Position numbers and translations under genes: made by a program | Assembly (NCBI GenBank): GCA_035472275.1 | Contig: DATIPH010000031.1 | Location: 14,983 to 78,982 of the forward strand | Length of the DNA stretch: 64,000 nucleotides | Source: Solirubrobacterales bacterium | Lineage (GTDB): Bacteria > Actinomycetota > Thermoleophilia > Solirubrobacterales > 70-9 | Direction of reading: 5' to 3' | Notes under the pieces: model-generated | The model's database searches: none | Told to the model about the DNA's origin: nothing | What the model saw: the letters and a program-made list of their open reading frames with translations, nothing else | Shown: one piece after another, positions 7,429 to 26,272 of the stretch | Position numbering within the stretch: position 1 is the stretch's first letter | How the letters are laid out: each line of letters opens with the position of its first letter

Positions 7429-7436
7429 GGCGCGGC

Positions 7437-7583: not shown

Positions 7584-7893
7584 GAAACAGCCGGTTTCCA
7601 CCGGCCGCAACCGGGCGAAGCAACGCAGCGTTTTGGCCTGGGCAGCACGGCGCAAACCCAATGCTGATGCCGTAGAACGCCGCAAACCCAGTTGTGGAGC
7701 GGAAGTCCTGGGACAAGACTCGAAACACGATCCAGTGGTGGCCCGAATTCGTGAACTCCACGCTCAACGCTACAAATCCGGCTACGGAGCCGACTGATTC
7801 AGTATGCGTGAGGCGGCTCGAACGCGTCAAGGGGGCCGGCTTTCCCAGCGATGGGCTATCGGAATCGCAGCCGTTCTTTTCTAGGGCGTGAAC

Positions 7894-8301
7894 CTAGAAG
7901 TGCTGCCCGAGAATGAAGCCAACGACCGAGACGACTACACCGCTGCCAATCTGAATCACCCAGGGATGATTCATGATCTGCTTCCAGTGGGACTCATCCT
8001 CGGTTGGCAGCTCGACTTGCGATTCTTGGATCGAGTCACTGATGGCTTTTAGTTCAGGCGGCCCAAGGTGAACCGCTGGGGCAGGAAGCCGGGGCTCGAT
8101 TCGAGGCCCTGGCTTGATCGGTTCTATGTCGATGAACGTACTTGCTTGATTTGCTTCTGCAAGAAGCGATTTGTAGGCAGATGATTCGAGCAGCTTTGCT
8201 CGGATCGACTGCAACGCCAATTCGACTTCCGGCGTCTTGGCCAGCTTGCTTGCGAAGTCCGGCGCTCTTTGGGTCAGCTGCTGAAATAACTCCGAATCCA
8301 T
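7894..8301 (-). CDS. Hypothetical tail-anchored membrane protein (135 aa)
   Basis: Single C-terminal hydrophobic helix WVIQIGSGVVVSVVGFILG. No other motif. Confidence 0.55.
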   Translation of the reverse strand: MDSELFQQLTQRAPDFASKLAKTPEVELALQSIRAKLLESSAYKSLLAEANQASTFIDIEPIKPGPRIEPRLPAPAVHLGPPELKAISDSIQESQVELPTEDESHWKQIMNHPWVIQIGSGVVVSVVGFILGQHF

Positions 8302-8395
8302 GCGGACAAAATCGCAGTCGGATCAGACGGATACTGCGAACGGACCTTCCGGGCGCAGGGCCTAGACCAGCAATAGGAGCAGATCAGCTCGGTGC

Positions 8396-8623
8396 TCATT
8401 TCCCCGACTCCAAAAGGCTCAGCGGCTCCACATCCAGCTTGCCCGCGATCTTCTCGACGTTCTTCAGCGTCAGGTTGCGCTCACCGCGCTCCAGGCCACC
8501 GACATAGGTGCGGTGGAGGCCGAGAGCGGTTGCAAAGTCGGCCTGGCTGAGGCCGCGAGCTTGGCGGTAGGTCCGCAGGTTCTGCCCGACGATGCGTTGG
8601 AGGTCGCCTTCCATTGGGAGCAA
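8396..8623 (-). CDS. XRE-family helix-turn-helix regulator (75 aa)
   Basis: LRTYRQARGLSQADFATALGLHRTYVGGLERGERNLTL is a classic Cro/C1 HTH. Confidence 0.85.
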   Translation of the reverse strand: MLPMEGDLQRIVGQNLRTYRQARGLSQADFATALGLHRTYVGGLERGERNLTLKNVEKIAGKLDVEPLSLLESGK

Positions 8624-8691
8624 TCAAACATGGAAGGGCTGACGAACGCCATACCCAATGAGGCAATTCGCGCTTTGGGACTGCCCCCGCG

Positions 8692-9534
8692 CTAGGGCTC
8701 GGACTGCTCGGCGGGCCGTGCCGGCGGTCCCGGCTGGCCCGGAACCTCCCGGCGCTCCCGTTCAAGTTCAGCTATCTCGTCGTCCGTGAGACCAGGGGAC
8801 AGCGCCTCTTCTTCAGCGCGTACTTCTCTCATTTTTTCATCACGGGCTATGTCTTTTCTCACTAGCTGCTCCCGGAGTTTCACCAGATCCGGGTCAGCGG
8901 CAGCCTTGCGCCCAATAGCGGTCCGATAGAGGCTCGCCTCTTCAGACCTACTGAGGCGCTGGTTGGTGTTCTCGGTGAGACTGGTCAGCCGCTCAAGGCG
9001 ATCCACGATCAGACCAAGGGTCCGCTCCTCAACATTGCCTCCTTGCAACTGGGCCAAACGCATTCCGTCTGAGATCGGGTTGTCGGCTGGATTGGTCAGC
9101 GATGCGCCGAGTTGCGTCTCCAGTTCTTGGCGGGCTACGTTGGCGCTGGCCAAGTCGTTGTGCTTGAAGAAGATGACTCGGGACTGGCCAAGATCAAAGG
9201 GCAGCTTGGTGTCTTCCTCGGCAATCAGGACGACCGGCAGCAGCGCGCCGTGGCGTACTGACAGCTCGTAGTAGACGTTGGGGTTGCCGCCGGTCAGGTC
9301 TGCTACAGCCGCTTTCGCTTCCAGGCAATGCTGGACGGCCTGAGAGGTGATCTGACCAGGCTCACCAACATCATCGGCGCGGAGGGTCTCGAGCCCGTGG
9401 GCCTCCGCGGCCGGTTTGACTATCCAGTCCCGTACGTCGTTCGAGCGCTTGCGGACATCAGTGCCTTGCTCGCCGATCGGCGCAATGAAGAAGCACTCCT
9501 GCTCAAAGTCAGCGGCCATTCCGTTGGCGACCAT
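8692..9534 (-). CDS. Rossmannoid NDT/TIR-like domain protein with charged coiled-coil tail (280 aa)
   Basis: CFFIAPIG strand, then ADLTGGNPNVYYELSVRHGALLPVVLI. This resembles the nucleoside 2-deoxyribosyltransferase/TIR-like core with a conserved Glu. The C-terminal 100 aa are rich in E/R/K. Confidence 0.6.
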   Translation of the reverse strand: MVANGMAADFEQECFFIAPIGEQGTDVRKRSNDVRDWIVKPAAEAHGLETLRADDVGEPGQITSQAVQHCLEAKAAVADLTGGNPNVYYELSVRHGALLPVVLIAEEDTKLPFDLGQSRVIFFKHNDLASANVARQELETQLGASLTNPADNPISDGMRLAQLQGGNVEERTLGLIVDRLERLTSLTENTNQRLSRSEEASLYRTAIGRKAAADPDLVKLREQLVRKDIARDEKMREVRAEEEALSPGLTDDEIAELERERREVPGQPGPPARPAEQSEP

Positions 9535-9573
9535 ATCCGCTGAGGGCGGGACTGCTCATCTCAGGTTTTTGGG

Positions 9574-10191
9574 TCAGCCGCCCGGCGATTCAAAGCCCAG
9601 CAGCGAGATAGTGGCTCGAATGGTCTTGGGATCTTTGGCTTTGGCCAGGCGGGAAGCACTCTCGCCCTGAATCTCCAGCACCTGATCGAGCGCGCCGCTC
9701 AGTAGCGTCATGGCGTCCTCCCAGCCTTGGTCGTCGAGGTTGAGCGGCGTGCAACTCAGGTGGCGGTCGTCGCGGGAATCGAAGGTCTCGTTCTCCAAGG
9801 CAGCCTTGGAGGCGTCATTGATCATCTGAAGACCGGCAACCGAGACGCCATTCTTGGCGTCGTCGGAGAGGGACGCCCAGTTCTCCGCGTTGAGAAAGGA
9901 GCGGGTGACGCCGCGAAAGAAGTGCTCCATTGCCCCCCGGCGCTGCTCGGCTTTGACCAGTTCGACGCAGCCCAGTTCTTCCAGCACACCGACGTGGTAG
10001 CTGACGTTGCCGAGTGGCTCGTCAAGCTCAAGATGAAGTTCCTTGGGGGAGGCCACTCGTTCGTTGAGGATCGCCAGGGCGCGGGCACGCAGGGGGTGTC
10101 CGACGGCCTTGGCCAGGCGGCTGTTGAAGCCGGCATATAGCTCGGATGACGGCTGGTCGCTGCTCTTGGCTCGGTCCTTCTTGGGGGGCAC
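9574..10191 (-). CDS. ArsR-like winged-helix protein with extra C-terminal domain (205 aa)
   Basis: AKAVGHPLRARALAILNERVASPKELHLELDEPLGNVSYHVGVLEELGCVELV is an ArsR/SmtB-type wHTH. Confidence 0.75.
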   Translation of the reverse strand: MPPKKDRAKSSDQPSSELYAGFNSRLAKAVGHPLRARALAILNERVASPKELHLELDEPLGNVSYHVGVLEELGCVELVKAEQRRGAMEHFFRGVTRSFLNAENWASLSDDAKNGVSVAGLQMINDASKAALENETFDSRDDRHLSCTPLNLDDQGWEDAMTLLSGALDQVLEIQGESASRLAKAKDPKTIRATISLLGFESPGG

Positions 10192-10523
10192 GGGGATACA
10201 GCTCCTTCAATAGTCGAGGGAACGATGAGCAATCGACTGTATTCGTGCAACCGGCTTGTGTCCAACTGCAAACGGCCCGAGTTTCTTCACTAGTGGAGGT
10301 CTCTCTACTATTGCCGCTTGGGCTGGGTTCTTAGCGCTCTAGCGAGCGCCTGGCGCTCAGCCGCGCCCTTTCGAGAGCGAAAGGGGGTGACAAAAGTGGC
10401 TATCAAGATCACGGAGCGCGTTGTTCCGGTCCTCGTCACGAAGCTCGGCTAGAGCCGGCAACAGCAGTAGCGGATGGTCTGCCCCAGTCTGGGCGGAGCA
10501 TCCGTCTCTCCGATCGGCGGCGC

Positions 10524-10877
10524 TCAGGACTTCGACGGGCGGTCCTCGATCGCCGCCTTGACCTCGCGGACCTCGCGATCGAGTTGGTCAAGACGAGCGA
10601 GCACCTGCTTCTCGAACGAAGCGCCGCCGCTGACTCGTCCGGCGGCCTGGAGCAGTTCGGTGGCGTCGACCTTGAGGGCGGCGGCCACCCGTTCGATGAT
10701 CTCGTCGGAAGGCGGGCCTTGCTTGCCTAGCTCCAGCCGGGAGAGGTTGGAGGGGCTCATCGGGATGCGCTCAGCCAGCTCGGCCAGGGTGTCGCCGCGC
10801 TTGCGCCGAAGGCGGCGCACCAGGACGCCGAGGGTCTCGGCGCGCTGAGTCTCTTTCTGTCCCTTGGGGCTGGCCAT
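10524..10877 (-). CDS. XRE-family HTH regulator with C-terminal coiled coil (117 aa)
   Basis: LRRKRGDTLAELAERIPMSPSNLSRLELGKQ is an HTH motif. Confidence 0.8.
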   Translation of the reverse strand: MASPKGQKETQRAETLGVLVRRLRRKRGDTLAELAERIPMSPSNLSRLELGKQGPPSDEIIERVAAALKVDATELLQAAGRVSGGASFEKQVLARLDQLDREVREVKAAIEDRPSKS

Positions 10878-11051
10878 GCTCCGCCAATCCCCTGACTACC
10901 GGCTAATAGTGGAAAACCCTAACCTATTCCCGCAAGTCGGGCTATGGCCCGGAATGCGGTAACGTCCGCACCGTGCCTGGCCGGGCTCCACAAAGTCACC
11001 CCCTCGGCCAGGCCACCACTTCAGGCGGGCAGCGACAGAAGGGCGGGAGCA

Positions 11052-11651
11052 ATGCGTGGCAGAGCGTGGCGGCGGTATGCAGTCCTAGCGGTGATCACCG
11101 GCTTGGCGGCGTGGGCGACGGTGCCGGCGACGAGCGTCACCGCAGCGCCGCCTCTCGAGCAAGCCTGCGTCAAGGCCGGACTGGTGCCGCCCGTGGTCAA
11201 AGAAGCCGTCATGGAACACCCCGGCAGCAAACGCGGCCGATTGCAGTCTGTCTCCACCAGCATTGAAGTCCCGGCGATGCCGGAAGAATGCTGGGGCATC
11301 TACCAGCGGCTGAGCGCCGCTGTCACCCAGATTCAAGACCCGCTGCACCACGCCCGCTGGTACAACACCAGCGGCTGTCGCTTCACGGCCAAGGAATGCG
11401 TCGGCATCAGCAAGCCGAACTGGTGGCAGTTGTCCTGGGCCAAGGACGAAGGCGGAATCGCCGGGCTTTACTCGCCGCCGACCGGCCATGAGGGAAAGTT
11501 CCTCTACTACGCCTGCACGCCCGGCAAGGGAGTCACCCACGTCCGGCTGCTGCTGAGGCGCACGATCAGGAGCGTCAGCACGCACCAAGTGATTGGGCGC
11601 AGCCGGATCAATGTCCGCCCAGTGGAAGTGCGAGGGAGGAAGCCATGCTGA
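11052..11651 (+). CDS. Secreted Cys-containing hypothetical protein, paralog A
   Basis: Signal peptide RRYAVLAVITGLAAWATVPATSVTA. Shares CV(K/E)AGL, P(E)xC and QIQ landmarks with the next gene. GGGAG Shine-Dalgarno before ATG 11052. Confidence 0.6.
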   Translation: MRGRAWRRYAVLAVITGLAAWATVPATSVTAAPPLEQACVKAGLVPPVVKEAVMEHPGSKRGRLQSVSTSIEVPAMPEECWGIYQRLSAAVTQIQDPLHHARWYNTSGCRFTAKECVGISKPNWWQLSWAKDEGGIAGLYSPPTGHEGKFLYYACTPGKGVTHVRLLLRRTIRSVSTHQVIGRSRINVRPVEVRGRKPC

Positions 11652-12286
11652 GGCGGGGATACCCCGCCCTGGTGATCATCGCGGGGCTGTTGGCCGGGCT
11701 GACGGTGTCGATGACGGCACCGTCAGCCAGAGCGGAAGACGAACTCGGGCAGACCTGTGTCGAAGCTGGCTTGGCTCGGCCGGGAGCGCTGCACGCCATT
11801 GAAATGCACCGTGCCGGTTTGCGACCGGGCACGCCTGGTCACTACCACTCGCAGGGGGTCTCCGGGGTCTTGCTGTTCGGGGCACTGCCGGAAGGCTGCG
11901 TGCCGTCAGTGGTTCGGACGGCGACGGCGCAGATTCAGATGTGGCGGGGGCGCTGGGTGAATGTCGGAGCAAGGCACGGCAACATGGAAGCCCCCGGCAA
12001 CAGCGAACGAGCTACCAAGCTCTTTGCTGGCCCGACCCATGCGTGGCCAAGCTACGTCTTCAATGAATGTGGAGCTGGTGGGAAGTGGCTGAAAGTCCGA
12101 GCAGTCGTCGGGCTCCAGGTCAAGGACAGCAGCAGCCATGCAGTGCTGGGAGCTCAGCGCTACGTGTGGCCGGTGCAGGTGCATGGAAGCTGCCGGTTGG
12201 CACGGATCAGCAAGAAGCAGACGGCCAGCTACAAAGAAGAATGGGGCCAAGGGAGTGGGAGGGTGCGAGTCGATTCTCCGGGTTGA
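11645..12286 (+). CDS. Secreted Cys-containing hypothetical protein, paralog B
   Basis: Signal peptide ALVIIAGLLAGLTVSMTAPSARA. GAGGGAGGA Shine-Dalgarno. Overlaps paralog A by 7 nt. Confidence 0.6.
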   Translation: MLRRGYPALVIIAGLLAGLTVSMTAPSARAEDELGQTCVEAGLARPGALHAIEMHRAGLRPGTPGHYHSQGVSGVLLFGALPEGCVPSVVRTATAQIQMWRGRWVNVGARHGNMEAPGNSERATKLFAGPTHAWPSYVFNECGAGGKWLKVRAVVGLQVKDSSSHAVLGAQRYVWPVQVHGSCRLARISKKQTASYKEEWGQGSGRVRVDSPG

Positions 12287-12520
12287 TCGCGCGGTTTCGG
12301 GTTGAACTGAGGGCGAAACGAGCCAAGGGCGTCCGGAGGCATAGACACACTGCTGTCCTGTGAGCCCCCTCTCACTTGGCTTGAGCACTAGCCGAGTCGG
12401 CAGCTTCGTCTTGGTAGCCTGCCGCGATTCGTGCGACCCCCTGCCTAGATCTGTGTTGATTCCAGGTATGCACAGACAAAACCTTGTATTTACACAAGAG
12501 TTCTCGCATACTTAAAATAA

Positions 12521-12907
12521 ATGGAGAAATTTCCTGCCAATACCGCTAGCGTTCCCGCATCTCAGGAGTCTGCGCTGCGGTCGTTCTTTGTCCGCCTGCT
12601 GGGACCCCTTGTACGGCAACCTCAGCGGGAGGACGACAAAGCAGTGAGCAACGGCGAAGGTGAACAGGCAGCATCGACGGGCATCACGCTTGAAGATGTC
12701 CAAGCAGAGTTGAACAGAGTGGACGAGGAGCGTCGGAATCGGACGCCCGACTGGATGCCTCAGCCCTTGGAGCTTGGACCACAGCGCTACCCCGACCCCA
12801 GGCTCTGGGGTCCGGAGAATGGGACCGAGGACGAGAGCTACCGAGACTCTCTGAAGCTCCTTCCCAATTTTGAGCCTGCTCACGTGTCGGCCAAGCGCAA
12901 CCGCTAG
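12521..12907 (+). CDS. Hypothetical acidic protein (128 aa)
   Basis: Track ORF, first gene of the A/T-rich cassette, preceded by an A/T-rich promoter-like stretch. Confidence 0.45.
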   Translation: MEKFPANTASVPASQESALRSFFVRLLGPLVRQPQREDDKAVSNGEGEQAASTGITLEDVQAELNRVDEERRNRTPDWMPQPLELGPQRYPDPRLWGPENGTEDESYRDSLKLLPNFEPAHVSAKRNR

Positions 12908-12932
12908 CTCTCCCTCCTTCATCGCTAGCTCT

Positions 12933-14777
12933 ATGAGTTGGGTGGACGCGCTTCGGCGCCTGATGGGTTGGTCTGATCCTGTAGCTGAGTTCAACTTCGA
13001 TATCACCGTGGATCGTGTCGGCTGCCTCGCAGATTTGATCACCCGGCCAACCCGCTATGTACAGCGGCTGGCCGAGCAGCTGTCGTTTGTGCCGACGGGT
13101 GGGCAGCAGTGGGTGCGCACCCTTCAGATTCAGATCCCAGAAACGAGTGGCTCGAAGCAGCCTGACTGGTGGATCATCCCCCTCGGACAGTTCAGTCGCA
13201 AACGCTTTGCCGACTTGGTGGCGCGCGACGCACATGGTCAGCGCCTCAATCTGCTTACGCGAAACCAGCACGGGGACGCTCTCACCGATGTGTTGACCAC
13301 GAACTATGCCTCACAGCTTGATCCTGCCTCGCGGGCGCTGCTGCCTGAGGAACAGCCGAGAGAAGCAGCGCTGCTCCTGCGATCACTCCTCTTTGAGTAC
13401 CTAACGAATCTCGATGTGCCGCCCGACGACGATGACTGGACGCCGGGAGCTAGCAAGCCCGTGCATCAGGTCTCTCAACAATACAAGTCTCTCTTGCTAG
13501 CCCTCAAACTGTCCGACTCCGACAGCGACGCTCGCGCCCAGCAGTTCTTCAAAGAAGTTGCGGAGCAGACCCGGACCGCTCCCTATCTCTGCTGGGTCAA
13601 AGCATCACCCGGCGAGGTAATCAGCGTGCAGGTGACCTACTCCTCAACGGATCCGAAGCATAGCCTCGCACTCGGCAGCTTGTGGGATCTGTTCTTGTCG
13701 ATACTCAAAGGTCTGGTTCCGCTATGGGGTAAAGCCCGGTCGATACGTGCTCGCTGGTTTCGGCAGTATGGACTTGCGCCAATTGACTACGCCTTCGATA
13801 TTCCAAATCAGGCGAGTACTGGCAGCTACTACCTGAGGCTGCAACCTCCAGACAACACCATTTGCTCGTATCTCGATTGGGCGGTTGATGATTCGTTCAA
13901 TGAGGAGAAGGAAGCAGACGGCGCGTTTCCTTCGGCACACATTCACAACAACGACCCAACTCATCCCGAAACCGGCACCCCAGCCGATAAAGGCGATAGG
14001 GCAAGCGAGGCTATCCGCGCCTATCTGCGCTGTGCGCCCCATCACCACAAGCAGATTCTTGGCGCAACGATGCTCAATGTGGTGGTCGTGTGGCTCCTTG
14101 CAAAGGGAGAGCTTCCAATCGGATTTGGAGAGCCATTGCAAGCCCTCATCGCTGCGGCTCCGTCAATTCTCATCGCGTTTCTCGCGCAGCAGCAACGTCA
14201 CTACTACTCACAGGTGATGCGACGGCAACGGGCGATCCTGTGGACCTACTTGTTTATCAGCGTGTCGTTCCTTGTCAGTGTGGCTTTTAGCGCGCAGAGT
14301 CACTCGACGCATGAGAGTGGATTGCCGTGGCTGGCCAACATTGCTGCGTGGGTACTGGCGATCAGCAGTACCGGAGTCTTCTTCTGGCACTTGCCACTAG
14401 GAGGTAGCTATGAACGGGTCATCAAATATCTCACTGATCGCAAGTGGGAAGTCGCTCAGCCTTCGCAAGAGAGCCTAGGACCTGTACGTGCCTTTGGATT
14501 CGACGTGCGGAAGCAGTGGTGGAAGTGGTGGAACGTCAATTTCACGACGAAATGGGAATGCTACGCGGACGCAGTGCGGCAGTACTGCTGCATAATTTGC
14601 ATTCTTGTCGTTGCGTCTATGGGTGGCGCTGCGTTTCTGCTCAGTGAATTTGCGGACTTTTCGCTGAAGCCACAGCCACGCCCCCCTAGCGGGCGCCCAG
14701 TGTTCACCAATGGGCAGGCACCGACGTCGTTGCCGCGTCCAGACACCGAGCGAATAGACTTAAGCCCAACGTGGTGA
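12933..14777 (+). CDS. Large hypothetical membrane protein (614 aa): about 400-aa soluble N-domain plus 4-5 C-terminal TM helices
   Basis: Long ORF in an A/T-rich region, where spurious long ORFs are unlikely. Hydrophobic helices include LGATMLNVVVVWLLA, IAAAPSILIAFLA, ILWTYLFISVSFLVSVAF, IAAWVLAISSTGVFFW and IICILVVASMGGAAFLL. ATG 12933 preferred. Confidence 0.7.
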   Translation: MSWVDALRRLMGWSDPVAEFNFDITVDRVGCLADLITRPTRYVQRLAEQLSFVPTGGQQWVRTLQIQIPETSGSKQPDWWIIPLGQFSRKRFADLVARDAHGQRLNLLTRNQHGDALTDVLTTNYASQLDPASRALLPEEQPREAALLLRSLLFEYLTNLDVPPDDDDWTPGASKPVHQVSQQYKSLLLALKLSDSDSDARAQQFFKEVAEQTRTAPYLCWVKASPGEVISVQVTYSSTDPKHSLALGSLWDLFLSILKGLVPLWGKARSIRARWFRQYGLAPIDYAFDIPNQASTGSYYLRLQPPDNTICSYLDWAVDDSFNEEKEADGAFPSAHIHNNDPTHPETGTPADKGDRASEAIRAYLRCAPHHHKQILGATMLNVVVVWLLAKGELPIGFGEPLQALIAAAPSILIAFLAQQQRHYYSQVMRRQRAILWTYLFISVSFLVSVAFSAQSHSTHESGLPWLANIAAWVLAISSTGVFFWHLPLGGSYERVIKYLTDRKWEVAQPSQESLGPVRAFGFDVRKQWWKWWNVNFTTKWECYADAVRQYCCIICILVVASMGGAAFLLSEFADFSLKPQPRPPSGRPVFTNGQAPTSLPRPDTERIDLSPTW

Positions 14778-14784
14778 TCGTCGA

Positions 14785-15654
14785 CTAGCTGATCCCAACC
14801 CTCTCCCCAAACCCCTGACGGTCCCACTCGCCAACTTGGGCCAAAATAAAGCGCAGCTCTCTTGCTTGCTCTTTGGTTAGGTCGCCGGTCCAGCCGGCTA
14901 GACGAATGAGCGAGTCAGAGTTGTATGTGGCGGTACCGTGGAGAATCGCTTTGCCGTATTGCTCCATGTAGGCGCTTAGCGTGGTGAGTAGCCGAGCCAG
15001 ATACCACAGAGCGCCCACCGATGCATCAGCGTGCTCATGGGCCTTCTCGGGGTCACCTCGGCTGGCTTCCCGGGCAATCACTTCTGCTCGCAACCCGTAG
15101 ACATCACTCCAAATGCGAGAGAGCAAAACCTCATGGTCGGCAGTATCTGAATGAGCAATCTGTTCCTCGGCGATGACCGGCGTGTGACCTGACGCTTCAA
15201 ATGGCTCGCCGTCCTGGGCTCGCCGCACATACTGCAAGCTGTCCTGATGCAGTAGCCAAGCCACTTCTCCGAGTATCTGTGGCTCGATCCGCTTGCGGAA
15301 GTGATGTAGCTCGTAATCGAGGAGGTTGGCGGCATGGCGACGACGCTCAGTCAGCGTCCGGCCACCGCGGGCAACCACGAATAGTCCAGTCGCCGCTTCG
15401 CGGCGCTGCTTCGGCACTATCGCTTTCAGCGTTCCCTTCAACAGGCGTTCTAGTGCATCGACGCGGGCAAGCCGGTCACCTGACCGAACACTGCGGGCGA
15501 TCACCCCATTGAGTTGCAGCAGATCATCGGGCACCTGATCCGGTCGCAGGGGGATCCCCGTGCGCAACACGGTCTTGAGTGCCTCAACAGTGCCTCCCAG
15601 TTCGGCTCCCTCGGGTGGCTGAGACGGTGGTTTCTTGCGCTTCGGGCTACCCAT
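14785..15654 (-). CDS. Hypothetical protein (289 aa), convergent with the membrane protein gene
   Basis: Track ORF. ATG 15654 (MGSPKRKKPP) preferred. No family recognised. Confidence 0.55.
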   Translation of the reverse strand: MGSPKRKKPPSQPPEGAELGGTVEALKTVLRTGIPLRPDQVPDDLLQLNGVIARSVRSGDRLARVDALERLLKGTLKAIVPKQRREAATGLFVVARGGRTLTERRRHAANLLDYELHHFRKRIEPQILGEVAWLLHQDSLQYVRRAQDGEPFEASGHTPVIAEEQIAHSDTADHEVLLSRIWSDVYGLRAEVIAREASRGDPEKAHEHADASVGALWYLARLLTTLSAYMEQYGKAILHGTATYNSDSLIRLAGWTGDLTKEQARELRFILAQVGEWDRQGFGERVGIS

Positions 15655-15656
15655 CC

Positions 15657-15697
15657 ATGCCCAGCATATGCCCACATTGGGAACTTTTAGATGCCCA
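15657..15697. promoter_or_regulatory. Divergent promoter region with three direct ATGCCCA boxes
   Basis: ATGCCCA at 15657, 15668 and 15691, so the spacings are 11 and 23 nt. Lies between divergent starts at 15654 (-) and 15722 (+). Confidence 0.4.
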
Positions 15698-15721
15698 GTA
15701 ACAACCCGGAGGGTCGGAGCC

Positions 15722-15994
15722 ATGACCCCACCACGCATTTGTCCCCCACCGCCGACCGCCCCCGACTGCGGTCTCTTCGACCAGCGCCTCAGCTACGTCC
15801 CGGATGAGCCGCTGCGCCGGGCCGTTCTCATGGACCGGCGCAAGTCCCGCGACCTGGCCGCCTTCGTGTGGGCCGACTTCAACCGTGACCGCCGCCCGGT
15901 GGCTGAGCCAAAGGCTCCCACCCCCACGGTGCCACCGCTTCCCAGGCCGGCGCTGCCCTCCACTTCGATGATCGAGAAAGGAGTTCTGCGATGA
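15722..15994 (+). CDS. Hypothetical Pro-rich protein (90 aa)
   Basis: Inner ATG of the track ORF. First gene of a tightly packed plus-strand operon. Confidence 0.45.
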   Translation: MTPPRICPPPPTAPDCGLFDQRLSYVPDEPLRRAVLMDRRKSRDLAAFVWADFNRDRRPVAEPKAPTPTVPPLPRPALPSTSMIEKGVLR

Positions 15995-16308
15995 ATGAAC
16001 TGCCAGCCCGGCTCGACGGGCTGCGGCCCTCCCGTCAACTGACGCGGGCGACTGCTGCCCAGGAACGAACTGAGTTGGCCGTCTTCGAGCACCATCTTGC
16101 CGCCCGCTATCTCGCAGAGATCGACCGCATCGACTCGACTGCGATCGCAGATGTTGCTGAAGCTGCCCTCGGGGAGGAGATGCGGGTTCTCGACTGGGGC
16201 CTGAGTGAAGCCGGTGACAGCGTTACCAAAGCTGAGTTGGTCTCGCGCAAGGTCAGCTTGCAATCGCGGATCAACAACGCCCGGATCGCCCGGCGCTTCG
16301 GGGGGTGA
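15991..16308 (+). CDS. Hypothetical protein (105 aa)
   Basis: 4-nt overlaps with both neighbours suggest an operon. Confidence 0.5.
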   Translation: MNELPARLDGLRPSRQLTRATAAQERTELAVFEHHLAARYLAEIDRIDSTAIADVAEAALGEEMRVLDWGLSEAGDSVTKAELVSRKVSLQSRINNARIARRFGG

Positions 16309-16577
16309 AGGCGATGTTCGAGCTACTACTGACGATCGTCGCCGGCTCCGGAGCAGGCGCACTCTGTGGCGGCCTGCTGGCCGCCTGGCTGTTGCGGCGT
16401 CACCACCGGACTGAGGACGGTCAGCCCGACGCGTTGGACCCTTGGGTATCGGCCGAAATCGACCGGGCGGCTGTGGAGTTCGCCAACCGCAATGGGCGGC
16501 CGGAGACCGCCCCGCTCATTGCCGACAAGCTCCACCTGTTGCATCACCTGGGCCAGCGTCAAGGAGGCTCAGAATGA
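16305..16577 (+). CDS. Small membrane protein (90 aa)
   Basis: N-terminal TM helix LLLTIVAGSGAGALCGGLLAAWLL. Confidence 0.5.
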   Translation: MKAMFELLLTIVAGSGAGALCGGLLAAWLLRRHHRTEDGQPDALDPWVSAEIDRAAVEFANRNGRPETAPLIADKLHLLHHLGQRQGGSE

Positions 16578-16813
16578 TCTGGGTACTGCTCTTGCTGGCG
16601 GTGGCCTTCGTCGTCTTCCTGGCGTGGCGGAACGGTCAGTCACCGCCACAGCAACGAGACCCAGAAGCCGAACTGAAAGCGGCCCTGGAGTTGCACGCCA
16701 TCCGGCGTCGGCTGGAAGCAGCCGAGCTAAAGCATCAACAGCGCCAGGACGCTGCCCGGCTCAGGCGGGACATTCAGGAGTCCCTGGACGAGTCCGACGG
16801 TCGTGTCTCCTAG
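16574..16813 (+). CDS. Small membrane protein (79 aa)
   Basis: AAGGAGG Shine-Dalgarno 7 nt before ATG 16574. TM helix IWVLLLLAVAFVVFLAW. Confidence 0.6.
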   Translation: MIWVLLLLAVAFVVFLAWRNGQSPPQQRDPEAELKAALELHAIRRRLEAAELKHQQRQDAARLRRDIQESLDESDGRVS

Positions 16814-17318
16814 AACGGCACCCACCGGCTTTCGGCATGAGCCCACGGTCGGCGGCAGCGTCGAGTGGTACACGCCGCCGGAGCTGTTCGCTGCGCTCGG
16901 GCTGACCTTCGACCTCGACCCGGCATCGCCGCCTGGCGGGCTGCCCTGGGTGCCGGCGGTCCAGCACTTCTCCCGTGATGACGATGGTCTGAGTCGTCCC
17001 TGGCATGGCCGGGTCTGGCTCAACCCACCCTACGGTCGGCGAGTTGGCGAGTGGCTCGACCGTTTGGCTGTCCACGGTGATGGCATGGCCCTGGTCTTCG
17101 CCCGCACCGACACCGCCTGGTTCGAGCGGGCTTTCCGGGCTGCCACCGCTGCCTGCTTCGTCCGCGGACGCCTGCACTTCATCAGCGGCGATGGCAGGCC
17201 GGCGCCGGGGCCAGCCGCGGCACCCTCGCTGCTGCTGGCTTACGGCCTGTCATGTTCCCTGGCGTTAGCTGCCTCGGAACTTGGGCGAGTCTGCATCGTG
17301 CCGAAGGATGCTCCGTGA
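16803..17318 (+). CDS. Phage-type DNA N6-adenine methyltransferase (small Dam family)
   Basis: EWYTPPELFAALGLTFDLDPASP followed by VWLNPPYG, the hallmark of the phage Dam-type family. Confidence 0.75.
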   Translation: MSPRTAPTGFRHEPTVGGSVEWYTPPELFAALGLTFDLDPASPPGGLPWVPAVQHFSRDDDGLSRPWHGRVWLNPPYGRRVGEWLDRLAVHGDGMALVFARTDTAWFERAFRAATAACFVRGRLHFISGDGRPAPGPAAAPSLLLAYGLSCSLALAASELGRVCIVPKDAP

Positions 17319-17485
17319 AAGGGCTGGGCTCGACGGCGCTGGTGGCAATGCTCCTGCTGCTTGCCCTAGCGGCGGCCACGCCGTCGCTCATCGCCCTCAG
17401 TGGCGCCCTACTGCCGCTAGTGGTCGTGTTGGCCGTGGCGATCGTCCTGGTTCGCCTGGTCCTTTTCCACACCCGGAATTGGTGA
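17315..17485 (+). CDS. Small two-helix membrane protein (56 aa)
   Basis: GTG overlaps the methylase stop. The sequence is almost entirely hydrophobic (LVAMLLLLALAAA, LLPLVVVLAVAIVLVRLVLF). Confidence 0.45.
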   Translation: MKGLGSTALVAMLLLLALAAATPSLIALSGALLPLVVVLAVAIVLVRLVLFHTRNW

Positions 17486-17648
17486 GGCACAGCGTGATTG
17501 CCCTGCTGTCAATTCCACGCCTTGACCCTCCAACTGAAGGCATCGGACAATGGAAGGTTCGCGTTGGCACCTGGGTTGGTTCCTCACTCCCTCATCCCCG
17601 AAGACGTGGGCGAATGGCAGCACAAGAAACGGGAGAGGAGGTTCCACG

Positions 17649-17804
17649 ATGCCAAGAAATAAATCAACCAAGCCACGCCTGACGCGGGTCAGCGTCGAGC
17701 CAGAGGAGCGAGACGAAATTGACTGGGACCGCTTCGCCTGGGCGCTTCTTCAGCACTGCCGGCTCAAGATTGAAGCTGAAGAGAAGGAAGCGACCGAGCT
17801 ATGA
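17649..17804 (+). CDS. Hypothetical small protein (51 aa)
   Basis: GGGAGAGGAGG Shine-Dalgarno before ATG 17649. The stop overlaps the next gene's ATG. Confidence 0.45.
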   Translation: MPRNKSTKPRLTRVSVEPEERDEIDWDRFAWALLQHCRLKIEAEEKEATEL

Positions 17805-19816
17805 AGCGCCGCTCACTCGACTGGTTCTGCTTGCGCTTTCCGCGCGACCTTGATGAGCCAGCGGTGCTGGCGGCTCTGGCTTCGCTCTCGGGCTTGCCAC
17901 ACAGTGCCCGAACACGACTGGAACTGACGGCGACGGAGACCGGCACTGGCCACCGGCTGGCCCTGAATTCGGCAGCGCTGGAGCCGGTCATCGCCGGGCT
18001 GCGAGCTGCCATGCCGAGTTTGCGCATTGAGCCGATGGACGAAACAGAGCCCAGCTCTGGTGATCGACTCCGGTTGCAACTGTCGCCCCGCGTCAGCGCC
18101 ATTCGCGCCGATGACCTCGGGGCTATCAGCGCCGGACTGCTGTCGGCGCTGTTCCCTCTTCATAAAGGGGAGGTCATTCGACTGAGCTGGGACGTGCGGC
18201 CCGGTGTCCGGCCAGCAATTCCCCTTGAACCTGAACTGAAGCTGGACGGCCGGCGAAGAGTCTTACGCGACAAGCTGGCCGGCCCCGGCCTAAGGGCCAC
18301 GGGCGAGCTGTGCATCAGCGCCAGTAGTCCTGGTCGTCGCCGTCGTCTCATGCAGCGGGTGGTTTCGACCTTGCGTAGCCTCGGCACGCCAGCGGGACGG
18401 CTGGTGGCAGAGCCGGTCTGGCTGGGCCAGTTGTCCTGGCTCCTCGGGCGACGTGGTGACTTCTTTGGAATTCGGGAACTCGCCGCTTGCATTGGCTGGC
18501 CCATCGGCAGCCCGGACATTCCGGGACTGGAACTGGGAGCCGCCCGACGTTTGCCGCCGGGTCGGGCGCTGCCCCGGACTGGCCGACTGCTCGGACACAG
18601 TGATTTTGCCGACTCGTTGTTTGGCCCGGCTCGGCCGGTGGCGCTGTCGGCCAAGGCCTCAACGCGCTCCCTTCACATTTTGGGCCCGACCGGCACCGGC
18701 AAGTCCTCCCTTCTTTGTGACTTGGTGCCAGACAACCGCGTCGAGGATGTCGTCTACCTGGACCTGACCGACCAAACCCATGCGGTCGGCTTCAATCCCT
18801 TTGCTTCCGGCGCCGACCCCTCGCTCATCGCTGACCAACTCGGGGAACTCTTCCAGCGGCTTTGGGAAGACTTCTGGGGACCGAGGACGGCCCGCCTAAG
18901 CCACATGGGACTGCTCACGCTGGCACGGCGGAAGGGCTCAACGCTGCTCGACTTGCCCCGGCTGTTTCAGGATGACCAGTTCCGGGCGGCGGTTTTGGCC
19001 GGGCTCGATGACCCGGTGGGGCTTGGGCCGGACTGGCAGTGGTTCGGCGGTCTCAGTCCAGCCGAGGCCGTCAACGTCACCAGCCCCTTGCTCAACAAGG
19101 CCCGGCAGTGGGTGGCCCGGCCGAACATTCGAGCCATAGTCGGCCAGGCCAGGCCACGAATCACCATGCAGCAAATCATTGCCAAGCGCAAGGTGCTGCT
19201 GGTGCATCTGCCCAAGGGTTTGATCGGGCAGGAGACGGCCCAACTTTTTGGCTGCTTGGTGCTGACTGCCGCCTGGCAGGCGCTAGCTGAACGTACCCGG
19301 CTACCGCCGGAGAAACGGGCTCCCTTCGGCGTCTACGTCGATGAGGTGCAGGACTTCGCGGCTGCCCCAATCCCGTGGGACGAGCTGTTCGCCCAGGGCC
19401 GAAAGTACGGCTGCGCACTGACCGTGGCCCATCAGAATTTGGCCCAACTCCCCAAAGTCTTGCGGGAGGTCATCCTGGCCAACGCTCGCTCCAAGGTGGT
19501 CTTCACGCTTGGCGCGGAAGATGCCCGCATCATGGAGCGGACCTTTGCGCCGAGCCTCAGTGCCGGCGACCTCCAGGCACTCGACGCCTATGCCGTCGCT
19601 GCCATGTTGGCGCTCGATGACGGCAGTACGGCCCGGCCGGTGACGCTCACCACGCCACCGCCGCCAGAGCCCGTGGGCAGTGACGAGGCAGTCCGGGTCG
19701 CCTCGCATCAAAACTACGGTCGGTCACGGGCTCAGCTTGAGCAGGAGTTCCGGCGCCGAGTTGTGCGGCCTGTCACCGAGGCGCCGATTGGGCGGCGGAA
19801 GCGGAGTGGCTCATGA
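17801..19816 (+). CDS. TraD/VirD4-like (type IV coupling protein-like) P-loop ATPase
   Basis: Walker A ILGPTGTGKSS and Walker B FGVYVDEVQDF. The C-terminal ARSKVVFTLGAEDARIMER resembles TraG/TraD-family proteins. Confidence 0.75.
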   Translation: MKRRSLDWFCLRFPRDLDEPAVLAALASLSGLPHSARTRLELTATETGTGHRLALNSAALEPVIAGLRAAMPSLRIEPMDETEPSSGDRLRLQLSPRVSAIRADDLGAISAGLLSALFPLHKGEVIRLSWDVRPGVRPAIPLEPELKLDGRRRVLRDKLAGPGLRATGELCISASSPGRRRRLMQRVVSTLRSLGTPAGRLVAEPVWLGQLSWLLGRRGDFFGIRELAACIGWPIGSPDIPGLELGAARRLPPGRALPRTGRLLGHSDFADSLFGPARPVALSAKASTRSLHILGPTGTGKSSLLCDLVPDNRVEDVVYLDLTDQTHAVGFNPFASGADPSLIADQLGELFQRLWEDFWGPRTARLSHMGLLTLARRKGSTLLDLPRLFQDDQFRAAVLAGLDDPVGLGPDWQWFGGLSPAEAVNVTSPLLNKARQWVARPNIRAIVGQARPRITMQQIIAKRKVLLVHLPKGLIGQETAQLFGCLVLTAAWQALAERTRLPPEKRAPFGVYVDEVQDFAAAPIPWDELFAQGRKYGCALTVAHQNLAQLPKVLREVILANARSKVVFTLGAEDARIMERTFAPSLSAGDLQALDAYAVAAMLALDDGSTARPVTLTTPPPPEPVGSDEAVRVASHQNYGRSRAQLEQEFRRRVVRPVTEAPIGRRKRSGS

Positions 19817-19928
19817 GTCGTCCGCTCGCTCGTCCGCTCGCGTTGAGCTTGGGCCGGCGCAGTTGGCGCTGTCATCAGCCGCTGCGGTTGGTTCTGCCGC
19901 TGACTGGTACTCCAGAAATGGGGTTCCG

Positions 19929-20753
19929 ATGACGACGCGGCGCTATGCCACCACGGCGGCGGTACAGACGCTGGTCGAGCAGGTTGATGACCGTGACCTG
20001 GCCGTCCTCCAGCGGGTCTCGTCCTTGCGATTCGTCAGCGGTGAACAGCTTCAACGCATGCACTTCGGCGGCCACGATGCGGCCCAGGCACGGGCTGCTC
20101 GCCGGGGATTGCTGCGACTCGTCCGGCTGGGTGCCCTGGTGCGGTTGTCTCGCCGGGTTGGCGGTGTGCGCGCTGGGAGTGCTGGCTTCGTCTACCGGCT
20201 GTCGCCGGTTGGGTTGCGGCTGGCTGAAGACCAGGGCTGGCAGCCGGTTCGGACTCGGCGGCGGTCGGACGTGCCGGGGACGCTGTTCGTGACTCATGCC
20301 CTGCTGGTTTCCGAGCTTCATACCCGGCTGGTGGAGCACGACCGAGCCGGGTCCATTGAGCTAGTGAGACTGGTGGCCGAGCCGGGCTGCTGGCGCAGCT
20401 ATTCCGGCAACGGCCACCAGGCGGTGCTGAAGCCGGATAGCTACCTGGAGCTGGGGAGTGGGGAGTACCTGGACAGCTACTTCATAGAGGTGGACCGGGG
20501 GACGGAGGGCAGTTCTGCCCTGGCTCGCAAGACCGGGGACTATCTGGCCTACAAAGCTTCCGGAGTGGAGCAGCGGCGCCACGGCGTCTTCCCACGGGTG
20601 CTGTTGCTGGTGCTGGATGAGGCGCGAGCTGGGGCAGTCTGGGGAGTGATCCGGCGGTTGCCGGAAGGGGCACGACGGCTATTCGCCGTCGCCCTGTTTG
20701 AGGACGTTTTGACAACGCTTCAGACCTCTGAAAACAACCAAAAGACAACTTGA
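19929..20753 (+). CDS. Replication-relaxation family protein
   Basis: N-terminus LVEQVDDRDLAVLQRVSSLRFVSGEQLQRMHF and central LKPDSYLEL..YFIEVDRGTE are typical of this family. ATG 19929 preferred. Confidence 0.7.
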   Translation: MTTRRYATTAAVQTLVEQVDDRDLAVLQRVSSLRFVSGEQLQRMHFGGHDAAQARAARRGLLRLVRLGALVRLSRRVGGVRAGSAGFVYRLSPVGLRLAEDQGWQPVRTRRRSDVPGTLFVTHALLVSELHTRLVEHDRAGSIELVRLVAEPGCWRSYSGNGHQAVLKPDSYLELGSGEYLDSYFIEVDRGTEGSSALARKTGDYLAYKASGVEQRRHGVFPRVLLLVLDEARAGAVWGVIRRLPEGARRLFAVALFEDVLTTLQTSENNQKTT

Positions 20754-20823
20754 AACTTGCAGTGATCCTGCATACTTATATGTAGCATCTGAGACCACGG
20801 ATCAAGTGGAGAAGGGAGAGAAA

Positions 20824-22647
20824 ATGACCACGAAAACCACGGCCGTTGAGACGGCCACCAGCGACGAACCGCTGCCGCTGAGCAAGCGAGCTTTTGTCTA
20901 CCTGCGTGTCTCAACCGAGGAGCAGGCTGGCACCGACTACGATCGGGACGGGCTGTCGCAACTCAATCAGCGGGAAGGCGCTGACGGGAAGGCTGCCGAG
21001 CTTGGGGCGGAGGTCGATAGCGAGTTCAGTGACCCCGGCAAGAGCGCCTTCCGGGAACTCCAGAAGCGCACTGGCTTCCTGGCATTGCTTGAGGAGTTGA
21101 AGCGCCGCAACAAGCATGAGGCCACCCGCATCCACTACGTCATCGTCTGGTCGTGCAGTCGTTGGGCGCGCAACACGATTGATCACTGGCAGGCCCGTGA
21201 GTTGATGCGGGAACTTGGCGTGCGCTTCATCTCCGTCACCGAGCCGATCGTCGGAGAGGACACGCCGGCCGCTTTCCTCTACGAGAGTTCGATCGTCTCG
21301 CAGAACCAATACTTCTCGATGCAGAGCGGGGAGAACGTCAAGCGTGGGCTTTACACCAAGGCCAAACTCGGCGGCACCTACGGCTTTGCCAAGACCGGCT
21401 ACCTGAACCACATCGACCGGCTGCCCGATGGCCGCCAGGTTAGGACGATCGTTTTGGACGAGCAGCGGGCGCCTTTCCTGACGCTCGGCTTTGAGTTGTT
21501 CGCCTCCGGCAACTACTCCATCTCGTTGCTGGTCGAGGAGCTGTACAACCTGGGGCTGAGGACGCGCGGAACGCGCCGGCATCCGGGCGGCAACAAAGTC
21601 GGCACCTCGACCTTGCAGCGAATTCTGCGGGATCCCTACTACGCCGGATGGCTGCCCTACAAGCGCGGTACTGCCGAAGAGGAGACCTTTGAAGGCCGCC
21701 ACCCGGCGCTCACCGATCAGGAGACCTTTGATGCCGTACAGGCCCTGCTGGATCAGAAGCGGGTGGCCCATGAGCGGCCGCAGAAGCGCTCGCACTACTT
21801 GAAGGGCAGCGTCTTCTGTCGGAAGTGCGGCAGCCGTTTGACCTTCGGCGAAAGCACCGGCCGCAATGGGCTGAAGTACCCCTATCTCTTCTGTGCTTCC
21901 CGGATCAACGGCACTAGCTGCACGATGCGCCGCAACATCCGGCCCGACCTCATCGAGCACGAGTTGGTGCCCTGGTACCGCAAGCGGGCCACGCTGAGTG
22001 CCGAGCAGGTCAAGCGGCGCACGGAGGCGCTGGAGCGGCTGGCCCGCGTCAGCCAGCAGGCGGTCGTCCATGTCAAGGCCGTCAAGTCCAAGCTGATCGA
22101 CAAATTGAAGGCTCAGCAGGCCCGGCTACTTCGGTTGCACATCGAAGAGGGCGAGCAGATCTCGCCGGATGCCTTCCGAGAGGAACGGCGCCGCTTGGCG
22201 GCCGACATCAAGGCGGCTGAAAAGTCTTTGGCGGCCACCGAGGAGCAGCTTGATATGGACACCAGCGTGCTGCGCATGGCCCTAGAGCTAGCCGAAGATG
22301 TGGCCGAGGTCTTTGCTGACGCAACGCCTGTCGTGAGACGGGGCTACAACCAGGCGTTCTACAAGCACTTGTGGGTCTGGACCGACAACGATGATCCCAA
22401 CAGCGTCATCAAGCCTGGGCTTGAGAGCGAGTTGACCGAGCCCTTTGCTCTGGTGCTGGCTGGGGACTTCGAGACGAGAGCGCACCAGGCAGCCGAAGCC
22501 ATCGAAGCAATGGGCCGCAATGCAACAGACGCCTCCGAGGAAGCGTCTGTTGCTGTCGATCTCGCCGCTGTTTCGATCTTTGAAGTTATGGCGGAGGAGG
22601 TGGGATTCGAACCCACGAGACCCCTTGCGAGGCCAACGGCTTCCTAG
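20824..22647 (+). CDS. Large serine recombinase (integrase)
   Basis: Resolvase catalytic N-terminus FVYLRVSTEEQ, a recombinase domain, the zinc ribbon CRKCGSRLTF..YLFCASR, then a coiled coil. The last ~19 codons read through a tRNA remnant (VGFEPT). Confidence 0.9.
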   Translation: MTTKTTAVETATSDEPLPLSKRAFVYLRVSTEEQAGTDYDRDGLSQLNQREGADGKAAELGAEVDSEFSDPGKSAFRELQKRTGFLALLEELKRRNKHEATRIHYVIVWSCSRWARNTIDHWQARELMRELGVRFISVTEPIVGEDTPAAFLYESSIVSQNQYFSMQSGENVKRGLYTKAKLGGTYGFAKTGYLNHIDRLPDGRQVRTIVLDEQRAPFLTLGFELFASGNYSISLLVEELYNLGLRTRGTRRHPGGNKVGTSTLQRILRDPYYAGWLPYKRGTAEEETFEGRHPALTDQETFDAVQALLDQKRVAHERPQKRSHYLKGSVFCRKCGSRLTFGESTGRNGLKYPYLFCASRINGTSCTMRRNIRPDLIEHELVPWYRKRATLSAEQVKRRTEALERLARVSQQAVVHVKAVKSKLIDKLKAQQARLLRLHIEEGEQISPDAFREERRRLAADIKAAEKSLAATEEQLDMDTSVLRMALELAEDVAEVFADATPVVRRGYNQAFYKHLWVWTDNDDPNSVIKPGLESELTEPFALVLAGDFETRAHQAAEAIEAMGRNATDASEEASVAVDLAAVSIFEVMAEEVGFEPTRPLARPTAS

Positions 22648-22652
22648 GCCGC
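22589..22652 (-). pseudogene. 3' portion of a class-II (Ser-like) tRNA: anticodon stem-loop, long variable arm, T arm, acceptor 3' strand, CCA; the 5' half is absent
   Basis: Read on the minus strand: GCGGC-CTAGGAA-GCCGT, variable arm CCTCGCAAGGGG, GTGGGTTCGAATCCCAC, CTCCTCC-G-CCA. No complementary GGAGGAG and no D arm upstream. Confidence 0.7.
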
Positions 22653-23909
22653 CGTCCGGCCGGCCGGCGAGCGTGAGGCGGCCAGCTCCTCGACCAGCAC
22701 CGCGCCGCGCACGGCACCGTCGTTCTCCCGGCCCCAGGCGGCGATTCGCTCCGCCCGCTCGGCGAACGAGCGCTCGCGCAGCAGCCGGCGGGCCGCCCAG
22801 CGCAAGGGCGCCGGTTGGCACAGGCGCCAGGGCACGGATAGCCCGCAGCCGGCCCAGTCGACCCGCATCGCCGTCTCGCTCATGTCGCCGGCGACCGGGC
22901 TGACGAGGACCGGGGTGCCGGCGCCGAGGGCGCGGGCAATGGTGCCGTGGCCGCCGTGGGAGATGACCAACGCCGCCGCCGGCATCAGCTGGCTGTAGCT
23001 GAGCCAGTCGACGAGGGCGGCGTTGGCGGGGACCTCGATTGGGCGCTGGGGGACAACGCGGTTGGTCGTCGCCACCACCCGTACCGGCTCGTCGGCGAGT
23101 GCTGCCAGGGCCGTCCGCACCAGGCGGTTGCCGGAGTCGTGGGCGGTGCTTGGGGCGACCAGAACCAACGGCGCCTCGCCCGGCGGCAGCTCGACGTCGG
23201 GATAGGGCTGCTCGAAGGCCATCGGCCCGGTCACCCGCACCCCCGCCGGCCACTGTCGCGGGTACTCGAGCTGGGGGTAGGTGGCGACCAGCGCCAGGTC
23301 GGGGCTGATGCCGCCATGGAGGCTCTCGACCGGCGCCAGGCCCAGGCGCTCACGCTGCTGGTTGAGGTCGCGGCGCCCGTGCTCGAGGCCGATCCGCAGT
23401 AGCCGCTGACCCGCTCGCCAGCCGGCGCGGCCGAGCGGCGTCCGCGGTGCCCGTAGCCCGATTGCGAAGAACGGCAGGCCGGCCCCGACGACCGGGTAGA
23501 TGTGGGGGATCAGGGTCGCCAGCGGCACCCCGGCGCGCTCGGCGGCGAGCGCCGGCGCCAGGGTGAGGATGTCGCTGACGGCGACGTGTGGCCGCAAATC
23601 CTCCAGTAGTGGCAGCAGCGCCCGCGCGGCCTCGGCGGCGTGGCGGCCGTCGTCGGAGTCGGCCCCCGGCGGCGGGAACATCCGGTATTCCTGGGCCGCG
23701 GCGAAGCCGAGCCCGGCGCCCTCGACCGCGGCCCGCCGTTCCTCCCAGGTCTCGACGACGACCTCGTGCCCACGCGCCGCCAGCGCCCGGCCCAGCGCGA
23801 TCGCAGGGAACGCGTGCCCGGCGTCGCCGAAGGCGGCGACGAGGACCCTCAGGGGCGCAGCGGGTGGGTCAGGGTGCGTCAGGTCCCTCGCCCGGGCGGT
23901 TGAAGACAA
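22644..23909 (-). CDS. GT1-family (MGT/UDP-glycosyltransferase-like) glycosyltransferase
   Basis: C-terminal signature ISHGGHGTIARALGAGTPVLVSPVAGD and N-terminal VLVAAFGDAGHAFP. Confidence 0.8.
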   Translation of the reverse strand: MSSTARARDLTHPDPPAAPLRVLVAAFGDAGHAFPAIALGRALAARGHEVVVETWEERRAAVEGAGLGFAAAQEYRMFPPPGADSDDGRHAAEAARALLPLLEDLRPHVAVSDILTLAPALAAERAGVPLATLIPHIYPVVGAGLPFFAIGLRAPRTPLGRAGWRAGQRLLRIGLEHGRRDLNQQRERLGLAPVESLHGGISPDLALVATYPQLEYPRQWPAGVRVTGPMAFEQPYPDVELPPGEAPLVLVAPSTAHDSGNRLVRTALAALADEPVRVVATTNRVVPQRPIEVPANAALVDWLSYSQLMPAAALVISHGGHGTIARALGAGTPVLVSPVAGDMSETAMRVDWAGCGLSVPWRLCQPAPLRWAARRLLRERSFAERAERIAAWGRENDGAVRGAVLVEELAASRSPAGRTAA

Positions 23910-26271: not shown

Positions 26272-26272
26272 C

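Follow-up and report, generated by a model that had tools for sequence, protein, structure and literature searches.

A half tRNA-Ser at the border of an 18.56-kb element in a Solirubrobacterales genome is very probably a hybrid attachment site left by a large serine recombinase acting off target

A 64,000-nucleotide stretch from a Solirubrobacterales bacterium (GenBank assembly GCA_035472275.1, contig DATIPH010000031.1, positions 14,983 to 78,982), here called the window, carries an integrated element, or island, whose right border raises a question. Why does the open reading frame (ORF) of a large serine recombinase (LSR) run into the 3' part of a tRNA on the opposite strand and stop in the same CCTAGG palindrome as the converging glycosyltransferase gene? 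We believe that the half tRNA is very probably a hybrid right attachment site (attR), formed when the LSR integrated its element off target, at a secondary site (pseudo-attB) in place of its usual bacterial attachment site (attB). The coordinates of the features are collected in Table 1.

The half tRNA and the empty site

On the minus strand, 22589-22657 reads GGCGGC-CTAGGAA-GCCGT, TGGCCTCGCAAGGGGTCTC, GTGGGTTCGAATCCCAC, CTCCTCC, G and CCA in order, and the sequence thus bears out the tRNA 3' part noticed in the initial annotation. A single copy of the 17-nt T arm is present in the window, where 0.01 copies would be expected by chance. From the AAGC core to CCA, the fragment was identical at 45/46 positions to the intact tRNA-Ser(TGA) of locus L001, which stands beside the closest LSR homologue; it differs by the loss of 1 nt from the variable arm and by one C-to-T substitution in the acceptor. 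Because of this identity the fragment is assigned to the TGA type, and the tRNA-Ser(GGA) fit proposed at first was rejected. The half tRNA does not form a complete cloverleaf with an acceptor 5' strand, a D arm and a 7-nt anticodon loop with U33. ARAGORN called only tRNA-Asn (3992-4065) and tRNA-Met (26198-26272) in the whole window, Rfam at the gathering score returned the same two and none at 22589-22657, and the single Rfam match at E<=10 around the half tRNA was a partial tRNA-Sec of 19.8 bits. No covariance model called a complete tRNA there, and a search across the window found neither a 5' half (GGAGGAG plus D arm) nor a second tRNA-Ser fragment. This agrees with the initial judgement that the sequence is not a functional tRNA gene.

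The recombinase ORF is translated through the tRNA sequence, as had been claimed. Its C-terminus reads ...EEVGFEPTRPLARPTAS (also given as ...VSIFEVMAEEVGFEPTRPLARPTAS); roughly the last 19 codons are antisense tRNA, the host contributing the TAG and the one or two codons before it. The coordinates also place both stops in one CCTAGG (22643-22648), with the LSR TAG at 22645-22647 and the glycosyltransferase TAG as the complement of 22644-22646.

The site without the island was recovered from relatives. A contig with a 99%-identical glycosyltransferase (L002) and, independently, a second contig (L003) lack the island and carry DnaG, tRNA-Asn and the glycosyltransferase, and their flanks show 96-97% nucleotide identity to the window. 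The order in this empty site is tRNA-Asn, 14 bp, GGCTTCCTAGG and the glycosyltransferase stop. In BLAST alignments, L002 1-3597 matched positions 26245-22638 of the window at 96.7% identity and L002 3593-6535 matched positions 4083-1135 at 95.8% identity, the two segments overlapping by 5 nt. In an independent assembly, from another soil run, a contig of a related strain passes directly from 4078 to 22638, bypassing exactly 18,559 bp. In the orientation of the window, the empty site reads ...GGAGC TTCGCGGCGCTAGG GCTT CCTAGGCCGCC..., the left attachment site (attL) ...TTCGCGGCGCTAGA GCTT TTAAGGCGACACG... and attR ...GAGGCCAACG GCTT CCTAGGCCGCC..., and the junction is a 4-bp microhomology, GCTT, found at 4080-4083 and 22639-22642, immediately left of CCTAGG. 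The empty site, the BLAST segments and the 18,559-bp skip therefore show that the island is a precise insertion, with the exchange within GCTT. The two ends share this core, no host bases were lost, and both tRNA-Asn and the glycosyltransferase are intact after the insertion. The island starts 14-18 bp beyond the 3' end of tRNA-Asn.

The CCTAGG and the supposed 5' strand of the anticodon stem are of host origin. Positions 22643-22654 were found unchanged in the island-free L002 and L003, and the sequence 5' of tRNA position 27 is glycosyltransferase coding DNA. The fragment 22589-22642 has no counterpart in the empty site, and sequence shared with the island-free relatives begins only from 22638 rightwards, without the tRNA part. 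Of the anticodon stem-loop described initially, the 3' side from AAGC is tRNA, whereas the 5' strand and most of the loop are host DNA. The suggestion that the island ends on the right in a hybrid junction at or beside CCTAGG is upheld by the empty site, which shows GCTT adjoining the palindrome. Homologues of the glycosyltransferase are found at 80-99% identity throughout Solirubrobacterales. The closest end ...AGRLAA*, ...GRNAA* and ...SRVAA*, the window protein ends ...AGRTAA*, and since close homologues end alike, the last codons and the stop are native. More distant homologues continue into LRGWDSNPQP, which is antisense tRNA-Asn, so the convergent tRNA-Asn and glycosyltransferase neighbourhood is ancestral.

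Table 1. Coordinates of features at and around the integrated element (positions of the window)
Feature	Position	Strand	Evidence or remark
Host tRNA-Asn(GTT), intact	3992..4065	+	ARAGORN; Rfam 72.4 bits; gene and flank the same in island-free relatives
attL core GCTT, common to attL, attR and empty site	4080..4083		Alignment
Integrated element	4084..22638		18,559 bp counting one core copy
Element left end, P' arm of the element's attachment site (attP)	4084..4165	+	TTAAGG beside core; GGCGA...TCGCC hairpin 4088-4113
PD-Lambda-5-type two-gene defence system (predicted), cargo	5265..7830	-	Methyltransferase 5265-6146; partner gene 6139-7830
Core gene 1, 671-aa ATPase, putative DNA translocase	17801..19816	+	Weak similarity to type IV coupling proteins
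Core gene 2, Replic_Relax protein (replication or nicking)	19680..20753	+	Pfam PF13814, E=2.1e-35; PHROG 'replication initiation by nicking'
LSR	20806..22647	+	Pfam Resolvase, Recombinase and Zn_ribbon_recom
Element-borne tRNA-Ser (TGA type) 3' part, A37/G39 to CCA	22589..22642	-	P arm of attP; includes GCTT/AAGC core 22639-22642
Host-derived pseudo anticodon stem and loop (GGCGGCCTAGG)	22643..22654	-	Last glycosyltransferase codons, its TAG and one more base
Host glycosyltransferase (EryCIII/MGT family), intact	22644..23909	-	Pfam; insertion just beyond its stop codon

The recombinase family and its attachment sites

The gene caller starts the LSR at 20824, which gives 607 aa. The N-terminal catalytic resolvase domain PF00239 (E=7e-18) covers residues 29-189, the recombinase domain PF07508 (E=2.5e-13) is followed by the zinc ribbon PF13408 (E=2.9e-8), and the XisF and Ccr models matched below their equivalog cutoffs. 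The catalytic Y-x-R-V-S motif was invariant among 29 LSR homologues.

The ORF of the closest homologue, P0002 (83% identity), and an intact tRNA-Ser(TGA) overlap on opposite strands. A signature of antisense T arm (GFEP, GLEP, DSNP, GIRT and similar) was present in the last 75 residues of 102 of the 120 best homologues. When one genome per species was scanned, 51 loci were obtained, nearly all from metagenome-assembled genomes of Solirubrobacterales, and an intact tRNA-Ser lay antisense directly at the 3' end of the LSR gene in 46 of them (anticodons GCT, 15; GGA, 17; CGA, 11; TGA, 3). The family therefore resides in tRNA-Ser genes as a rule, and the tRNA portion adjoining the recombinase gene is the portion brought by the element. 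The copy in the window departs from this rule: it has no tRNA-Ser sequence beyond the 3' part that the element carries, and its target is not a tRNA. A distance tree of the LSRs did not sort by tRNA-Ser isoacceptor, the types being interspersed. Of the AAGC bases, the four tRNA-Ser types all share A37A38 and no others, and because of this our best guess for the exchanged dinucleotide is AA.

The LSR is the only recombinase of the element, and its gene ends flush, in antisense, against a copy of the tRNA-Ser 3' part. We propose that this copy serves as an arm of attP. Normally, attP would recombine with a tRNA-Ser gene of the chromosome, close to the 3' edge of its anticodon loop; the copy carried by the element would replace the displaced 3' part, and an intact tRNA would be regenerated beside the recombinase gene. 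In the window, a pseudo-attB resembling the anticodon stem-loop of tRNA-Ser(TGA) would have been used, with strand exchange within GCTT (AAGC in tRNA orientation, tRNA positions 37-40). The product would be a chimeric attR, in which the host's look-alike 5' stem strand and loop are joined to the element's genuine tRNA 3' part, and the LSR ORF, crossing its own tRNA copy, would terminate on the host CTAG. What we see are only the products, attL, attR and attB with a common 4-bp GCTT, and from these we infer catalysis by the LSR. An attP-borne tRNA mimic had been considered among the initial possibilities; the tRNA sequence is attP-borne, and it is a replacement copy, not a mimic.

Joining the two element ends gives attP in tRNA orientation as ...CAATCGTGTCGCCTTAA-AAGC-CGTTGGCCTCGCAAGGGG... 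(the core region is also given as CGCCTTAA-AAGC-CGTTGGCC). In this reconstruction, the homology to tRNA runs from about position 30, and the anticodon is defective, reading TAA in place of TGA. The same arrangement was found in three contigs from nature (L058, L059 and L060), which have a tRNA-Ser 3' part from position 30-31 with non-tRNA sequence before it. The flank in L058 matched the element's left end at 28/60 positions in register, a number reached by 0 of 2000 shuffles. We read the three contigs as unintegrated or circular forms, and their junctions support the reconstructed attP. A metagenome scan with an exact pattern for the element's attP or attL gave no matches.

The left end of the element also has two direct repeats, GTGCGCCAGTC, at 4140-4150 and 4152-4162; together with the hairpin these are candidate binding sites for accessory factors. 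L057 and L059 have a similar layout, with a hairpin and two CTGGCGCGAG repeats beside their tRNA parts.

The host site matched the true tRNA-Ser(TGA) site at 22/34 positions, comprising 10/12 of the nearest left-arm bases, the 4-bp core and about 9/14 of the right arm. In a background of 2.27 million Solirubrobacterales positions, 30 reached 22 matches, real tRNA-Ser genes among them. Because such a match is so rare, we consider that the site was chosen by resemblance. The more distant relatives L004 and L005 are without the GAAGCCCTAG stretch, and the decoy is accordingly limited to the lineage of the window. When L002 (3585-3600) is set against L005 (7195-7215), an extra 10 bp (GAAGCCCTAG, in glycosyltransferase orientation) is seen that duplicates CTAG and creates the AAGC core.

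Several further observations were made in the family. L015 has a second half tRNA (11757-11830), in which the LSR gene is followed by a tRNA-Ser(GCT) 3' part from G34, to which unrelated non-tRNA DNA of the chromosome is joined; on this 3.46-Mb chromosome contig, ARAGORN called no tRNA at the half-tRNA site. L008 and L050 are LSR elements approximately 17 kb apart, next to tRNA-Ser(CGA) and tRNA-Ser(GGA). A minority of homologues (P0014, P0080, P0112 and P0115; L023 2590-2700) have no tRNA tail. They carry another conserved C-terminal stretch, ...LxxLLEPVGRxARRRAAEAIR, which starts exactly at the expected tRNA start, and they may use another target or another attP arrangement. No relatives of the LSR family were found in a viral collection, sequenced plasmids yielded distant recombinases only (<=26% identity), and we found no literature description of a Solirubrobacterales tRNA-Ser LSR family.

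Competing explanations

Some points weigh against off-target integration by the LSR. A 4-5-bp microhomology is equally expected from illegitimate recombination. Position 4079, next to the attL core, is A in the window and G in L002, which a conservative exchange does not explain; we ascribe the difference to polymorphism or to a mutation after the insertion. The displaced tRNA-Ser 3' fragment expected at attL was not found within 10 kb upstream of the LSR gene in 47 related loci, where all elements exceed that flank, and the one expected between the two elements of contig JBLMYD010000017.1 (L008/L050) was not found either. A circle junction or excision product of the element was not seen in the source run, of which the contigs only were covered.

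The insertion might instead have been made without the LSR, either by microhomology-mediated illegitimate recombination or by an integrase acting in trans on the 3' flank of tRNA-Asn. The island abuts tRNA-Asn, and the microhomology and the mismatch at 4079 would fit such an event. However, the break on the element side is the very point at which natural attP-like junctions join both ends, the similarity of the host site to the cognate attB is far greater than chance would give, and the island has neither a direct repeat of tRNA-Asn nor a tyrosine integrase. We therefore consider this explanation improbable. A tyrosine-integrase island at tRNA-Asn was rejected as well; no tyrosine integrase or transposase was detected in any island ORF scanned.

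A normal integration into a tRNA-Ser gene might have been followed by a deletion or rearrangement that removed the 5' half and brought the glycosyltransferase gene adjacent. The half tRNA is genuine tRNA-Ser, and the family normally resides in such genes. Such a history is very unlikely, however. Compared with the island-free relative, both flanks are complete and free of extra sequence; the left border has the same 4-bp core and is 14-18 bp away from tRNA-Asn; and the bases of the 'loop' and of the 5' stem strand are the host's own.

An assembly chimera at a T-arm repeat common to many tRNAs was also considered, as the Logan unitigs of the source run break within the T arm (22605-22617). One unitig covers 4039-22617, with the attL junction and the whole island, and another covers 22605-22935, with the T loop, variable arm, junction and glycosyltransferase; each of them spans a junction, and the unitigs are all at depth 12-14. 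Because the junction-spanning unitigs share a depth of about 13, and with two assemblies in agreement, we hardly consider an artefact worth entertaining.

The split tRNA proposed at first, a 3' half paired with a 5' half elsewhere or a tRNA-like RNA, has a negligible chance, since, for all its intact T arm, variable arm and acceptor 3' strand with CCA, the window holds no 5' half, no model calls a tRNA, the loop CTAGGAA derives from host coding DNA, and the variable-arm deletion and acceptor C-to-T change set it apart from the nearest intact tRNA.

Gene content, known systems and other features of the window

The GC content is approximately 70% up to 4000, approximately 60% over 4001-22600 and 74% just right of the island. 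CTAG sites are concentrated in the island as well: 43 of the 60 in the window lie within 4075-22644, and there are 0 in 1-4074. The right end of the island is a conserved three-gene block of ATPase, Replic_Relax protein and LSR. The ATPase gene, kept in about 40 related loci, matched TrwB_AAD_bind below the Pfam cutoff (E=9.8e-4) and phrog_5156 (E=1.7e-31). The Replic_Relax gene probably has its true start further downstream than 19680. Neither an FtsK/SpoIIIE gene nor any type IV secretion gene was detected in the island. Of the modules of actinomycete integrative and conjugative elements (AICEs) and other integrative and conjugative elements, we saw an integrase and a Replic_Relax protein, the TrwB similarity of the ATPase being sub-threshold. 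The 18.56-kb element is integrative and probably also conjugative or mobilizable, and it may be able to transfer.

As cargo, two adjacent genes were found that correspond to the pair defining PD-Lambda-5 (PADLOC: A, 6139-7830, E=2.2e-102; B, 5265-6146, E=1.2e-99), with a Pfam MethyltransfD12 match, and a defence function is predicted for them. The island also encodes helix-turn-helix regulators and a Dam-type methyltransferase. The ORF at 8692-9534, a neighbour of the defence pair, has a weak match to a TIR effector.

For phiC31-type serine integrases, attP occasionally recombines with chromosomal pseudo-att sites that partly match attB, giving stable hybrid sites. The event in the window differs in being natural and in the native host clade, in a decoy that matches both arms (22/34), and in an attP of which one arm is a long tRNA copy. 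SSV1-type integrases are tyrosine recombinases with attP inside the integrase gene, so that integration splits the gene. Similarly, the integrase frame crosses attP here and integration alters the encoded protein, but only the non-conserved C-terminal tail is exchanged.

Studies have shown that tRNA and tmRNA genes are the targets of genomic islands of the Islander class, which use tyrosine integrases (Williams 2002; Hudson et al. 2015, PMC4383910). As in those islands, attP holds a fragment of the target tRNA and integration regenerates the gene, the exchange takes place at the anticodon-loop sublocation, and the integrase gene stands beside the regenerated tRNA. Unlike them, the recombinase here is an LSR, and the window copy lies outside any tRNA gene. 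Some Mycobacterium AICEs use a serine recombinase and are integrated in a tRNA-Leu gene, an arrangement called rare (Ghinet et al. 2011, PMC3218068). Compared by description, both are actinobacterial integrative elements with a serine recombinase and a tRNA gene as attB; the present family differs in its target (tRNA-Ser, all four isoacceptors), its host order (Solirubrobacterales) and its core module of Replic_Relax protein and TrwB-like ATPase, not RepSA/FtsK. The phiRSM filamentous phages of Ralstonia, such as phiRSM1, integrate into tRNA-Ser by a serine recombinase (Askora et al. 2011, as cited in PMC3218068). Going by that citation, their enzyme is small, resolvase-like and acts at the tRNA 3' end, in contrast to the 600-aa LSR at the anticodon loop here. 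The junction in the window is thus an ordinary hybrid att site, and the family behind it is new and of a rarely documented kind.

These results settle the island borders (4084-22642) and explain the half tRNA and the shared stop palindrome without an exotic mechanism. They also document a large natural family of serine integrases that targets tRNA-Ser, where the literature treats such tRNA targeting as rare or unknown (PMC3218068, PMC4383910). From the comparison of the decoy with the cognate site, positions that may matter for recognition are GGCGGCCT.G.AAGC.C.T.G.GCC.CG.A. An integrase whose target is universally present could serve as an integration tool for Actinomycetota, and the element carries a predicted PD-Lambda-5 defence system between soil bacteria.

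We tentatively raise a bolder idea, to which we give limited credence: an undescribed, widespread Thermoleophilia clade of tRNA-Ser LSRs might switch freely among the four isoacceptors through the shared A37A38, with integration and excision being one and the same reaction. If this were true, then, since the target is copied in one of the attP arms, attR would be nearly attB and attL nearly attP after normal integration. The asymmetry behind one-directional serine integrases would be lost, and no directionality factor would be needed. At the decoy this symmetry would be broken, and the element in the window could therefore be trapped.

Outside the island, a second stretch of lower GC content (approximately 60-66%) extends over 24000-32000 around tRNA-Met, and L004 and L005 have different genes beside their tRNA-Met; this stretch may be another variable region or island. 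A palindromic element of approximately 50 nt centred on CTATAGGGGG has copies at 31788-31842 and 52604-52656, with 77-81% identity as direct and inverted repeat. At 44944-45024, the 28-nt arms of a perfect inverted repeat are separated by a 25-nt spacer, and a repeat array with a 33-nt period lies at 50026-50265.

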